Positions 12,001-15,000 of a stretch of DNA of 56,388 nt are shown here, one piece after another. The position numbers were made by a program. Every line of letters starts with the position of its first letter. Positions within the stretch are counted from its first letter, which is position 1. This DNA comes from a virus (lineage: Duplodnaviria > Heunggongvirae > Uroviricota > Caudoviricetes), in IMG/VR virus record IMGVR_UViG_2909282993_000001, positions 1-56,388 of that record; one strand, given 5' to 3'.

Positions 12001-15000
12001 TCAGTTCACGGAACGGCTGGAATCAATGGCAACGGATAACTGTGCCCGCTGGGTGTTGTCTGTTGTGCGTCGGGATCTCGGTTTTGATGATAGTCACGTT
12101 GTGACAATGCCGGAACTGTGCTGGTGGCTGATTCGTAATGACCTGGCGGATGCCTTACCGGAAAGTGCAGCCCGTAAGGCACTGAGATTACCAAAGCCTG
12201 TTGTGCCGTCTGTCACCCGGGAAAGTGACCTTGTGCCTTCGGTTCCTGCCACCAGCATCATCCAGGATAAGGCGAAAAAGGTGCTGACGCTGAAAGTGGA
12301 TCCGGAGTCGCCGGAGTCTTTTATGTTACGCCCAAAACGTCGCCGCTGGGTTAATGAAAAGTACACGCGCTGGGTTAAGACACAGCCGTGTGCATGTTGT
12401 GGAAAGCCTGCTGATGATCCCCACCACTTGATAGGCCACGGTCAGGGTGGGATGGGTACAAAAGCGCATGACCTCTTTGTGTTGCCTTTGTGCAGAAAGC
12501 ATCACGACGAGCTGCATGCGGATACCGTGGCATTTGAAGAGAAGTATGGCTCCCAGCTGGAGCTGATATTTCGTTTTATCGATCGTGCGCTGGCAATTGG
12601 CGTACTGGCGTAAGTGGAGAACGAGCATGAACCTTGAAGCCTTACCAAAATATTACTCCCCAAAATCTCCAAAATTGAGTGATGACGCACCGGCGACAGG
12701 CTCGGGTGGTTTAACAATTACAGATGTGATGGCTGCGCAGGGGATGGTGCAGTCGAAAGTACCGCTTGGGTTTGCCTTATTCCTGGCAAAAGTTGGTGTT
12801 CAGGATCCTCAGTTTGCGATTGAAGGTCTGCTCAATTACGCGATGGCACTGGATAACCCGACATTGAACAAATTGAGTGAAGAAACCCGGCTACAGATCA
12901 TTCCTTACCTTGTGAATTTTGCCTTTGCTGATTATTCCAGGTCTGCGGCAAGTAAGGCTCGCTGTGAGCATTGTGCTGGTACTGGATTTCATAATGTATT
13001 GCGCGAAGTGGTGAAACACTCCAGAAGCGGGGAGTCTGTTATCAAGGAAGAGTGGGTGAAGGAACTATGTCAGCATTGTCATGGTAAGGGAGAAGTCAGC
13101 ACAGCGTGCAGAGGGTGTAAGGGTAAAGGTATTGTCCTGGATGAAAAAAGAACCCGGCTTCATGGCACGCCTGTTTATAAGATTTGTGGGCGTTGCAATG
13201 GAAACCGGTTTAGCCGTTTACCAACCACACTGGCGCGGCTTCATGTCCAGAAGCTGGTACCAGACCTGACGGATTATCAGTGGTACAAAGGATATGCAGA
13301 TGTCATTGATAAACTGGTTACAAAGTGCTGGCAGGAGGAAGCTTACGCTGAAGCACAATTGAGAAGGGTGACGAGATAAGCGATTTTCGCCGAAGATAAC
13401 GACATAATGCTTGTGTTTCTCAAAAAATATGGATAAGATTTTCTCAACGATGGGGCTTGTGTATCTATCGTTGAACGATTTTTACGACCTCGCTATTGCG
13501 AGGTTTTTTTATGGTTTTTTTCTATTCAATCTACATCAAAATCAATGTGTTATAATGTTTTCTGTAAAACAACATTAAAAACAGGAGAACATTATGAAAC
13601 TGACCTCTATCCATCTTGAAATACTACGTCGAGTGAATGAATTGCAGCCAAAGGATTCTAGAATTCAGGCTGCATCATTACCTCATCTCTCAGCAAAAGA
13701 GGTTAATTTTGCTATTTCAGATCTTGCTGATATAGGTTTTATCGATGTTATACGAAGCAAATCTGCCGAAGGTGGATTGATTGCTAATGAGATAACGTCA
13801 AAAGGTTTTGCTTTTTTGAGTGAGATTGGCGCTGAAAAAAATTCATCGATGAGCACTCATTGATTTCTGCTTCAATCGGCTGCCAATTGGCAGCCTAAAC
13901 TGTAAAGTGAATTTAAAATCGCCTACAATTGATGCTTAAATTTTGTTCTGTATCATCTGCAGGTTTAGGGATATCACAGTAGCTTTCTGACAAGAAGAGT
14001 TCTTTTCTTCTACCAATGAAGTGGTTATGTTAACCTGCGCTAAATCGAGACTGGTGCGGAGTGGAATCGAAAGTGTCATATTTTTACAGAAGCAAGAATA
14101 TTTCAGGTGTTTCTATAAATGAAGATAGCTTGATTAGCTTAAGCACGGCAATTGTCGAACGCTGCGTTAAAATGAATGAGCAAGCTCAAAAGGAAAGTAG
14201 GGAAGTTTGTGCTCAATGTGTTTTTTTTATTTTGTTCGATGGTAAGGGATATAAAGTTGATTCTATCGGTGAGCTTGTGAAATACTTTAGACAGGCCACT
14301 AGGATTGATCAAATAATTTTTACTATTGAAACTTATCAAAGTCGACAGTCTAACAGGATGAATGGATCTTGGATGGAGCTACGAATTGATGAGAGGAATT
14401 CAAATAGCAGCACAATGATTGTAGCATCGGAAGATAATGAGTGGGTTGACTCGTTATGGATTACGATTCAGGATTTACTTAACAAGTGCAAAAATAAATT
14501 TAGATTTTTTAGAACAGCTTGGACTATGTTAAGTATCCAGATTTCAGGTGTGACAGTTGGCTTTTTGCTTAGCTTATGGACAGCCTCAAAACTGGCGCCA
14601 AAACTATCAATCGATGGTGCATTTGCTTTATCATTTATTTGTATCTTTATTTTGTTTTCGAACTTATGGAGCTTTGCTATTCCATTAATAATTAAGCTTA
14701 TCGACTTTTTGTTTCCTAGTGTTAAGTTTGTTATTAATGGTAAAAATTACTTTCACTGGAGTGTCCAGGCTATAATTGGAGCGATTGCCAGTGCGGTTAT
14801 ATTATATTTTATTAGCTCCATGTTGCTTTTTGCATTAGAAATGTTAAATAGCATCATTAAGAAATAGTTAATGAATTAGTTATAATTACATCAATTCTAT
14901 GGCTGCCAAATGGTGGCCTTTTTTATTCCTCTCATTTCTATTTCTGAGAGGACTCACTGCAATAAGAGGTGGCTAATGTCCGATCCGATTTCCGGCACAG

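Follow-up and report, generated by a model that had tools for sequence, protein, structure and literature searches.

An AT-rich cargo segment of a lambdoid Escherichia coli prophage carries an older resident gene and a membrane-protein gene of putative integron-cassette origin

The window (the whole stretch of DNA analysed, 56,388 nucleotides, IMG/VR record IMGVR_UViG_2909282993_000001) holds a 1.4-kb AT-rich cargo segment of an E. coli prophage, located after the Q gene and a tR'-type terminator and before a holin gene; all strand-specific features given below lie on the plus strand. The Q antiterminator gene (12627..13379), the left neighbour of the cargo, matches PF03589 Antiterm at E 1.6e-52 as well as phrog_127, and has the same coordinates as the PGAP CDS. 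The tR'-type intrinsic terminator (13486..13512), called by a terminator scan, consists of a hairpin at 13486-13505 with an 8-bp stem, followed by a T-run. On the right, the holin gene (14976..15362; PF16931 Phage_holin_8, E 8.5e-35) is followed by a Phage_holin_3_7 gene and then by a GH19 endolysin gene. The GC content is 0.31-0.39 over 13300-14950, compared to 0.46-0.58 on both flanks. In two sister prophages that have the same Q gene and other cargo (L023 and L024), DNA similarity to the window stops at 13509/13510, and the terminator is the last sequence that they share with it; the cargo therefore starts at 13512, where the initial annotation had placed it. The GC drop and the end of the sister-prophage similarity thus bear out its description of an AT-rich insert directly after tR' (13512-14867), and all of the elements that it listed were found where it had put them.

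Cargo is found at the Q-holin junction in general; same-Q sister prophages hold other cargo or none at this place. Known morons, autonomous cargo units of lambdoid phages, occupy this slot (stx in Stx phages, nmpC in DLP12, cspB/cspF in Qin), and the two genes found here, A and B, are like these in their position (between Q, PR' and tR' on one side and the holin gene on the other) and in their foreign base composition. The borders of the insertion are evident in related phages, as L097 has gene A, the terminator and the holin gene without B, and L023/L024 diverge after tR'. The A-B unit may also resemble a moron in being transcribed autonomously: its own terminator is found at 14901-14918, and its promoter-like element is an extended -10 block that is kept at 29 of 31 positions in L097, lacks a -35 and lies in a region where a generic promoter scan performs at chance level. 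An Rfam search gave only matches far below threshold, and hence no known RNA element, and a tRNA search found none. The segment is foreign AT-rich cargo in the Q-to-holin slot, with a promoter-like element and a terminator. The unit differs from known lambdoid morons in being composite, with an older resident gene A that carries the promoter and a later gene B that seemingly borrows it.

Gene A (13594..13863) encodes a small soluble protein of 89 aa and has AGGAG 6 nt upstream of its start. Its product matches PHROG 32916 over its full length (E 3e-61), and its homologs are 35-51% identical to it with a dN/dS of ~0.2; taken together, the match, the homologs and the dN/dS establish gene A as a real gene, and the 89-aa reading frame with a strong Shine-Dalgarno sequence proposed previously was thus confirmed. 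Its Pfam matches are below threshold (DUF2513 at E 2.4e-4, 21.8 bits against a cutoff of 29.6; HTH_45 at 0.026), a Klebsiella homolog matches DUF2513 at 5e-3, the gene A profile finds MarR-type regulators in the PDB only at E 0.3, and the single-sequence AlphaFold model is poor (pLDDT 54). The profile matches suggest that the product is probably a winged-helix, DNA-binding protein. Least certain is its role: we infer a DNA-binding regulator with a function of its own, which would at most tune the level of a transcript shared with B. A-like genes elsewhere in the slot have a conserved extended -10 element and their own terminator, and gene A is the normal occupant of the tR'-holin slot in a group of enterobacterial lambdoid phages. 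The sequence GTTATAA is present 38 nt before the gene A ATG, with no 3' core site of the kind described below for integron cassettes.

Upstream of gene A lies a conserved 31-nt block, TCAATCTACATCAAAATCAATGTGTTATAAT (13526..13556), which is 29/31 identical in L097 while the flanking terminator stem and 5' UTR have diverged, and which ends in the extended -10 TGTTATAAT (13548-13556). The -10-like element TTATAAT noted initially is present as part of it, at 13550-13556. No recognisable -35 was found upstream of TGTTATAAT. The motif TGNTATAAT occurs once in the 56-kb window and 1.54 times on average in shuffled sequences, so that one match is about what chance gives, and a generic sigma-70 scan was equally uninformative (6 matches compared to 6.4 expected). 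The Klebsiella A-like genes carry TGGTAAAAT at the position equivalent to that of the extended -10 in the window. We consider the 31-nt block the putative promoter of gene A, P_A. The palindrome TGTTTT-CTGT-AAAACA, as read from the sequence, does exist at 13556..13571, where it takes in the final base of the -10 together with the expected start of transcription. However, its 6-bp arms are within chance expectation for AT-rich DNA, and it is not kept in L097, the nearest homologous locus, although the -10 block is; an operator role was therefore rejected as unsupported.

Gene B (14073..14867) encodes a membrane protein of 264 aa that is predicted to comprise a cytoplasmic alpha/beta N-domain (~140 aa), a basic linker and three transmembrane helices. 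The initial annotation had described a 268-aa protein with a soluble N-domain and membrane helices, and both the reality of the gene and this architecture are confirmed; the start, however, is the GTG at 14073 rather than 14061, as the N-termini of homologs align there and the PGAP start is identical. In the AlphaFold model (268-aa numbering, from 14061), the N-terminal alpha/beta domain, residues 1-145, has a pLDDT of ~88 and is followed by three long hydrophobic helices, in line with the three hydrophobic segments seen in the hydropathy of the family. The transmembrane part of the model is of low confidence (pLDDT ~50), and any pore is therefore conjecture. The helices carry the conserved polar residues Q156, S167, N197 and W199. 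The dN/dS of gene B between two prophage lineages is 0.16; genes A and B are both under purifying selection.

The B family comprises ~230 representative clusters at 50% identity, all of ~260 aa, and is unnamed: Pfam, NCBIfam, PADLOC, PDB and fold searches gave no match, in agreement with the initial remark that the sequences were not recognisable. Against PADLOC-DB v2 neither window protein had a match at E <= 1, and 23 members of the B family gave isolated, non-significant matches only (PDC-S02 0.011, 2TM effector 0.012, PycTM 0.094). In PHROGs, A and B fall in families 32916 and 30208 only, neither with an assigned function. Neither protein matched Pfam or annotated PHROG lysis families (holin, antiholin, spanin) in searches in which the neighbouring genes matched strongly, and neither is a known holin, lysis regulator or structural protein. 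A literature search by accession, PHROG number and 'DUF2513' yielded nothing linked to them.

The contexts of B outside phages point to its origin. The family occurs mainly in Gallionella, Thiobacillus, Methylobacter, Methyloversatilis, Nitrospira, Thiomicrorhabdus and Bacteroidota MAGs, and in environmental metagenomes. An integron cassette is a single ORF between core sites (5' ...TTRRRY; 3' RYYYAAC ... GTTRRRY) around an imperfect, bulged palindrome, the attC. In environmental B loci, GTTATGC lies ~30 nt upstream of the gene; at its end, the stop codon falls within GCATAAC, the first part of an attC-like palindrome. The ORF thus lies between inverted core sites around a bulged palindrome. 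Among 33 environmental loci, 18 have GTTATRY at most 80 nt before the start, compared to 1.5% of background windows, RYATAAC lies across the stop codon in 14, and both sites are found in 10; the stop site plus a GTTRR 42-117 nt further on is likewise seen in 10/33. The bottom strands of the attC-like elements fold as bulged hairpins (z -3.9 and -4.2). The core of the family, GCATAAC/GTTATGC, emerged from reading start and stop contexts, as a strict RYYYAAC/GTTRRRY scan found nothing; GTTATGC differs at one position from the textbook GTTRRRY. In one locus (L011), small ORFs on the same strand are separated by similar repeats, the same repeat type follows the neighbouring ORFs, and the ORF upstream of B is PF21648 'Integron cassette protein'; toxin-antitoxin (TA) cassettes adjoin B in L015, L021 and L002. 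No integron integrase or verified array was found beside B in the fetched flanks, most contigs being short. By its flanking sites, B in environmental bacteria appears to be a solitary integron-type gene cassette.

The window copy of B retains a trace of such an origin. GTTATGT (14024..14030), the candidate remnant of the 5' cassette boundary (an R'-type core site), is located exactly where similarity to L007, L008 and L009 begins. It is the only boundary that is kept: at the 3' end the stop codon stands in AAA TAG TTAATG, where neither RYYYAAC nor an attC-like palindrome is found. The prophage gene would thus derive from an integron gene cassette whose attC has been lost, whereas gene A is probably not itself a former cassette.

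The sequences on either side of the B unit suggest how it was inserted. Hairpin 1, GGCTGCCAATTGGCAGCC (13878..13896), is the stem of the former terminator of gene A, now without a T-tract; RNA folding shows the hairpin, but it is followed by TAAACTG and is not called by the terminator scan. It is an 84% repeat of 14901-14919, where hairpin 2, GGCTGCCAAATGGTGGCC plus a T-run (14901..14924; 14901-14918 in the terminator scan), forms the intrinsic terminator that ends the A-B unit before the holin leader. Hairpin 2 is also conserved before this holin leader in L007 and L097. After gene A, L097 has one hairpin only, GGCTGCCATTCGGTGGCC plus T6, whereas in the window two copies bracket B. Between hairpin 1 and the B unit is a spacer (13897..14023) with no promoter signal above chance and no significant similarity to methyltransferase cassettes or to any fetched locus; a remnant of a methyltransferase gene was considered and rejected here, as tblastn and local alignments were at shuffle level.

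In the E. coli lineage, a B unit without attC was inserted directly after the stem of gene A's terminator; hairpin 1 lost its T-tract, and no promoter is evident for B, a former cassette. Because hairpin 1 lacks a T-tract and B lacks an evident promoter, transcripts from P_A would pass through A into B and end at 14901-14924. Promoter activity of P_A and read-through of hairpin 1 are both inferred here, but on this arrangement A and B are probably co-transcribed as one transcription unit in the E. coli lineage. Both genes would be expressed in the lysogen via P_A, and Q-modified polymerase from PR' would also read through the unit late in infection. A promoterless integron cassette would apparently have become expressible once inserted behind the terminator hairpin of a gene that was resident earlier, a case of gene flow between integrons and prophages that is seldom documented.

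The two genes have separate histories, as their distribution shows. A-like genes without B lie between tR' and the holin gene in L097, in ~20 other IMG/VR contigs and in two Klebsiella phages (L098-L116, L025 and L026). L097 has the same DUF968-Q-holin_8-holin_3_7-GH19 backbone as the window and an A that is 51% identical, and shows that A predates the arrival of B in this backbone. A 191-aa membrane-like cargo protein after an A-like gene in L108 was rejected as a relative of B, since only a 20-residue transmembrane stretch aligns. Conversely, B occurs without A behind an N6_N4 methyltransferase gene in other prophages (e.g. L007 and L044), which have two other Q families, and alone in environmental genomes (L010-L022). 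Altogether, the prophage copies of B are associated with three Q families and two lysis-cassette types and always occupy the moron slot, directly upstream of the holin gene. None of the sequenced phages in INPHARED carries B, and in IMG/VR it is present only as the E. coli allele and one L007-like copy. In complete E. coli genomes A and B are found together in 40/40, at an identity of at least 99%, as one allele; in the eight non-redundant places that were read they are again always together, with B frameshifted in two. Their joint occurrence is confined to a single E. coli allele (99% identity), and they do not form a conserved, co-inherited pair. These comparisons indicate that A and B are two independently acquired cargo genes and not a two-component system; given the 40/40 co-travel, there may be a lineage-specific functional link between them in E. 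coli.

As a whole, the best explanation of the locus is one of two cargo genes in which B is a lone membrane phage-exclusion or abortive-infection factor, to which we assign a probability of roughly 0.42. That B is a single-protein factor of this kind is itself a best guess, held at somewhat less than even odds. B would act alone at the inner membrane, its cytoplasmic N-domain sensing or binding something and its helices oligomerising into a leak or pore, or else blocking DNA entry. In some loci the neighbours of B include AbiEi/AbiEii, RhuM, GmrSD_N, HEPN and a TIR-like CAP12-PCTIR protein; most environmental copies have housekeeping genes or other cassettes as neighbours, and no defence genes are visible near them. 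The frameshift of B in two of the eight places would fit a dispensable, possibly costly gene. According to Kieffer et al. (bioRxiv 10.1101/2024.07.02.601719), at least one third of the tested mobile-integron cassettes without assigned function protect against phage, transmembrane helices are present in about one third of the phage-resistance cassettes found there (BRiCs), and one of them, the TM-only cassette Deva, interferes with T7 genome injection; relatives of BRiCs with decayed attC sites occur outside integrons as well. BRiCs such as Deva/BrcWGS21 are single-gene, attC-bounded cassettes without assigned function, many with transmembrane helices and no recognisable domain. The environmental B loci have the same cassette anatomy, and the prophage locus a decayed version of it. 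The likeness does not extend to sequence, as no relation between B and the BRiCs was found and the B motifs are absent from the supplement of bioRxiv 10.1101/2024.07.02.601719, and Deva is TM-only by description whereas B has a sizeable folded cytoplasmic domain (predicted).

B is a compact, conserved and unannotated membrane family, apparently a mobile single-gene cassette which has been brought into the main cargo slot by prophages time and again, and this profile makes it a gene worth testing for phage exclusion. A bolder proposal, which we think unlikely to hold in full, is that B is the founder of a new family of single-protein membrane anti-phage factors, with a folded cytoplasmic sensor and a three-helix pore or blocker, whose integron cassettes circulate in environmental bacteria and were captured by enterobacterial prophages and are expressed via a resident promoter. 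If B is indeed an anti-phage family, a direct route for defence genes from integrons to prophages would be documented.

B could also be host-physiology cargo unrelated to phage conflict, for example a ligand-gated channel or sensor for stress that was spread first by integrons and became a prophage conversion gene later. This would fit a family that lives mainly in environmental bacteria and metagenomes, often adjoins housekeeping genes and matches no defence model, and bioRxiv 10.64898/2026.03.17.712381 describes most integron cassettes as being of diverse, unassigned function. On the other hand, lambdoid prophages either took up B several times or spread it over backgrounds that differ in Q (three families) and in lysis cassette (two types), with the moron slot as its place in each; some copies lie beside Abi, TA, GmrSD, HEPN or TIR genes; and no transporter or sensor signature is detectable in B. 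We regard this reading as a doubtful but serious alternative.

The initial annotation had likened the layout to two-component exclusion systems such as RexAB, and in a dedicated pair A would bind the palindrome at its own promoter, as a repressor or antitoxin, and would control or neutralise B, a membrane effector or toxin, in a layout like that of RexAB or a type II TA module. The gene order, with a small HTH-like gene first and the effector second, is as expected of such a pair, the promoter-like element abuts the palindrome at the expected start site, and the genes travel together in all of the 40 complete E. coli genomes and eight non-redundant places noted above. In addition, an unrelated gene of the small winged-helix-like kind precedes a B homolog by ~200 bp in L004; that arrangement, however, arose by loss of a methyltransferase gene, of which the 3' end is left. 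The many loci with only one of the two genes, the presence of A in the L097 backbone before B arrived and the lack of conservation of the palindrome where the promoter block is conserved all argue against a pair, and B, being a solitary cassette elsewhere, is not obligately toxic. Pfam, PHROGs and PADLOC revealed no homology of A or B to RexA, RexB or TA families. RexA and RexB of lambda form an obligate pair, and lie in the immunity region, where they are co-transcribed with cI. Both systems are prophage-borne, and in both a multi-pass protein of the inner membrane might in principle cause depolarisation of the cell, but A and B lie in the late operon, occur independently of each other and share no homology with the Rex proteins, and A is a small winged-helix-like protein rather than a RexA-like sensor. 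The comparison with RexAB is therefore not supported, the picture of a regulator plus its effector is corrected, and we consider a dedicated pair improbable.

Least probable of all is that B is a lysis-timing accessory, antiholin-like or holin-modulating, made from the late transcript and acting with the adjacent holins: every prophage copy of B sits immediately upstream of a holin gene, B is a small multi-helix inner-membrane protein and Q-dependent late transcription must cross it, but a terminator lies between B and the holin leader, the same backbone works without B in L097, the holins that follow B homologs are of two unrelated types, most family members lie in cassette contexts outside phages where lysis genes are absent, Pfam and PHROGs give no match to holin or antiholin families, and the junction attracts cargo in general.

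The preferred reading of two separate cargo genes can be compared with other occupants of the slot. A winged-helix-like ORF with an N6_N4 methyltransferase cassette lies at the same place as A-B in E. coli CE10 (L024), L005, L007 and L044, among others. CE10, L005 and L004 have a small gene first (66-73 aa, with weak MarR-like signals) and then the cargo, whereas in L007 and L044, which do have the methyltransferase, the first position is taken by an ORF of 200-226 aa instead. No relation of the small protein to A was detectable, and the window has no methyltransferase gene or remnant. The analysis also flags the small winged-helix-like gene after tR' as a recurrent, unexplained feature of one lambdoid phage group. 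In L005, L007 and L044, a B homolog is appended behind the methyltransferase gene.

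The segment at 13512-14867 lies in a region that matches a lambdoid (e14/Qin-like) prophage of E. coli O169:H41 F6326-C1 at 100% identity; among 5,426 complete E. coli genomes, 40 carry the entire 1.6-kb segment, at an identity of at least 99% in each. The local gene order runs from KilA-N through DUF968 and the antiterminator Q (PF03589) to the cargo segment, Phage_holin_8, Phage_holin_3_7 and a GH19 endolysin, followed by more lysis genes and then HNH and terminase genes. The coordinates and the observation of the initial annotation were sound: an AT-rich insert (GC 0.31-0.39 over ~13300-14950 vs 0.46-0.58 on either side) directly follows the terminator-like hairpin and T-run of tR' (13486-13505), and the DNA shared with sister prophages carrying the same Q stops at 13509/13510. 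Another terminator (14901-14918 plus T-run) lies just ahead of the holin leader. The 89-aa ORF (gene A, 13594-13863) was recovered with AGGAG 6 nt upstream. The membrane-protein ORF (gene B, ending at 14867) is also real; its start had been set at 14061, giving 268 aa, but is better placed at GTG 14073, giving 264 aa, because the homolog N-termini (MAHFLRDQ...) align to MSYFYRSK. This start, which PGAP also uses, has GGAG 11 nt upstream.

The main interest of the locus is gene B. An AlphaFold model built from an eight-sequence alignment gave a confident alpha/beta N-domain (residues 1-145 in the 268-aa numbering from 14061, four above the 264-aa numbering; pLDDT ~88) followed by three long helices of low confidence, while family-averaged hydropathy placed hydrophobic segments at ~150-172, 176-203 and 229-258, bearing out the soluble N-domain and multi-helix membrane C-domain previously described. 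Five K/R residues precede the first hydrophobic segment, which indicates that the N-terminus is cytoplasmic. The most conserved positions include D56 and G59 (motif FDxKG), W124, R147 and F219, and the helices contain conserved polar or aromatic residues (Q156, S167, S196, N197, W199 and P215), the polar ones of which would fit either a pore formed by oligomerisation or a specific contact between helices. The gene is under purifying selection (dN/dS 0.16, window vs the methyltransferase-bearing prophage L007). No match was found in Pfam, NCBIfam or PADLOC or by PDB sequence profile; in PHROGs it corresponds to family 30208, which has no assigned function and is based on an N-terminally truncated gene call.

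A word-indexed search returned only 9 clusters of B relatives; an HMM scan run in full over 1.84 billion representatives returned 230 at E <= 1e-3, with 127 reaching E <= 1e-30. The majority are full-length (~250-270 aa) and matched end to end. In enterobacterial prophages B is always directly 5′ of the holin and its upstream partner differs: in L007-L009 and L044-L046, Q (PF06323) is followed by a 200-226-aa ORF, an N6_N4 methyltransferase and B; in L005, Q (PF06530) is followed by a 73-aa ORF, the methyltransferase and B; and in L004 the methyltransferase is deleted, its last codons remaining ahead of the B homolog. In many lambdoid prophages a different cassette occupies this slot, namely a 66-73-aa ORF (MLxQxDMTETA..., with a weak MarR_2 signal) followed by the N6_N4 DNA methyltransferase, and this cassette or its remnant was located at 4234-5640 of L024 (E. 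coli CE10), 2188-3614 of L005 and 2096-2504 of L004. Environmental copies, in genomes and metagenomes of hosts including Methylobacter, Gallionella, Thiobacillus, Methyloversatilis, Thiomicrorhabdus, Nitrospira, Moraxellaceae and Bacteroidota, are solitary genes lacking a conserved neighbour.

At these environmental loci, GTTATGC occurs ~30 nt 5′ of the start, and its reverse complement, GCATAAC, extends from the last codon through the stop codon to the base after it (GCA TAA C); 3′ of it lie an imperfect palindrome and then, 42-117 nt downstream, GTTAGG, GTTAGC or GTTGAG. Among 33 non-identical environmental loci, 18 had the upstream core site, compared with 1.5% of 80-nt background windows; the stop-spanning site was present in 14, both sites in 10, and the stop site with a downstream GTTRR in 10. 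At L011, alignment revealed the same repeat type 3′ of adjoining unrelated ORFs, and the gene upstream of B is PF21648, 'Integron cassette protein'. For two such elements, folding of the bottom strand gave hairpins with bulges (z -3.9 and -4.2). Judged from these repeats, the anatomy of the environmental loci is that of attC-bounded gene cassettes. The L011 stretch at 7889-9940 (a Gallionella MAG), with PF21648, B, a tautomerase and a 166-aa ORF on the same strand and related attC-like repeats between them, is a probable cassette array; the fetched flanks of B loci, including 16.8 kb at L011, showed no integrase. The window copy has no 3′ element (stop context AAA TAG TTAATG) and retains GTTATGT at 14024-14030, the exact onset of nucleotide similarity to L007-type prophage copies. 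B appears to be an unannotated, mobile, integron-derived membrane-protein family and a candidate for an anti-phage role.

The anatomy and history of the locus are shown by the sequences or follow closely from them, and the function of B is inferred. We tentatively propose, with a probability of about 0.4, that B acts as a single-protein membrane factor in phage exclusion or abortive infection. This reading draws on the placement of B in the main cargo slot by prophages with three different Q families, on the position of some chromosomal copies beside Abi, TA, GmrSD, HEPN or TIR genes, and on work with mobile-integron cassettes lacking an assigned function, at least a third of which, among those tested, are reported to confer phage protection; TM helices occur in about a third of the protective ones, and the TM-only cassette Deva apparently prevents T7 from injecting its genome (Kieffer et al., bioRxiv 10.1101/2024.07.02.601719). 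The conflict genes beside B copies are AbiEi/AbiEii, RhuM and RelB/YafQ at some loci, GmrSD_N, HEPN and TumE/HVO_A0114 at others, together with Gp49/HTH_37 and DUF433/PIN-like TA pairs and a TIR-like CAP12-PCTIR protein. Against it stand the lack of any defence-model match or informative structural analogue and the many B contexts that look neutral; a physiological role outside phage biology is a somewhat less likely, though serious, alternative. A role in lysis timing would suit the holin-proximal position but is improbable. As the initial annotation had held, the segment is cargo, and probably autonomous; it matches no known lysis or structural gene. At L040, the gene for a 223-aa TIR-domain protein of the CAP12/Pycsar type (6797-7468, E 2e-5) lies 38 nt 3′ of the distant B homolog P0131 on the same strand, a possible two-gene arrangement in that lineage.

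The same annotation had read A and B as a dedicated, RexAB-like pair, which is equally improbable and which we reject: A occupies the slot alone in L097, which has the same backbone without B, and in Klebsiella loci, and B occurs elsewhere without A. In a large protein database A had no relative besides itself, the identical protein being listed in 6,269 blocks of an assembly collection; two Klebsiella phages were shown by tblastn to encode 79-aa homologs (37-39% identity), and a pattern scan of IMG/VR added ~20 more, plus L097 at 51% identity. All A-like genes examined lie 3′ of Q and a tR'-type terminator and 5′ of the holin, with their own downstream terminator and no B. Matches to DUF2513 (E 2.4e-4) and HTH_45 (0.026) were below threshold, MarR-type regulators in the PDB scored E 0.3 and the single-sequence structure model was poor; provisionally, the fold is probably winged-helix. 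A is under purifying selection (dN/dS ~0.2, window vs L097).

The decisive comparison is with L097, which shares the DUF968-Q backbone and the holin_8, holin_3_7 and GH19 cassette of the window; there, a single hairpin, GGCTGCCATTCGGTGGCC plus T6, is all that separates A from the holin leader. In the window, A's terminator stem (13878-13896) runs into TAAACTG where the T-run would be expected and is not called as a terminator; a 127-nt spacer then leads to the B unit, which opens with GTTATGT. A second hairpin copy at 14901-14919, 84% identical, is followed by a T-run and the holin leader, so that GGCTGCCAATTGGCAGCC (13878-13896) and GGCTGCCAAATGGTGGCC (14901-14919) bracket the B segment, alongside a weaker repeat (13540-13556 vs 14870-14886, each ending GTTATAAT). 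The B-less L097 has only one copy. B was thus inserted just 3′ of A's terminator hairpin, into an A-terminator-holin layout. B, a former cassette, has no promoter signal above chance, and the simplest reading is that transcripts from the putative A promoter, P_A, now span both genes and end at 14924; late in infection, Q-modified polymerase would read through them too. A and B are two unrelated genes, joined by insertion into what is probably a single transcription unit. B is frameshifted in two of the eight non-redundant places with an identical A, through an 11-bp deletion in L117 (window-equivalent 14368-14378) and through a 1-nt indel in L120. Together with truncated B clusters (P0004, 178 aa, 57 members; and P0007), this suggests repeated inactivation.

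The TTATAAT noted earlier is present at 13550-13556 within an extended -10, TGTTATAAT, and TGNTATAAT occurs nowhere else in the window. The best evidence that this promoter is real is conservation: the 31-nt block TCAATCTACRTCAAAATCAATRTGTTATAAT (13526-13556) is identical to L097 at 29 of 31 positions between a diverged terminator stem and a diverged 5′ UTR, with A proteins 51% identical, and Klebsiella loci have TGGTAAAAT at the equivalent position. The palindrome TGTTTT-CTGT-AAAACA is likewise present (13556-13571), but its left arm is not conserved in L097, leaving the operator idea without comparative support. In read-through transcripts from the late promoter PR', the -10 region (13547-13562) is able to base-pair with A's Shine-Dalgarno and AUG (13585-13600), and those starting at P_A, lacking the left arm, would have an open leader; the pairing, whose fold is not significant (z -1.6), might restrict A translation to A's own transcript. 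The A-B-lysis block persists in defective prophage remnants of some E. coli genomes: L118 and L123 (upstream of 2501) keep A, B, holin and endolysin with Q truncated or missing, so any expression of A or B there must come from a local promoter.

In a Klebsiella-type viral contig (L108, 3358-3933), an A-like gene is followed by a 191-aa membrane-like ORF unrelated to B, which suggests that the site just 3′ of A is itself an insertion hotspot. Between the lysis and HNH/terminase genes, a second AT-rich island (16967-17530, plus strand, GC ~0.35) codes for a protein of 187 aa; it had no match in Pfam, NCBIfam or PADLOC, matches phrog_18591 (no assigned function, E 3e-29), and looks like another moron.
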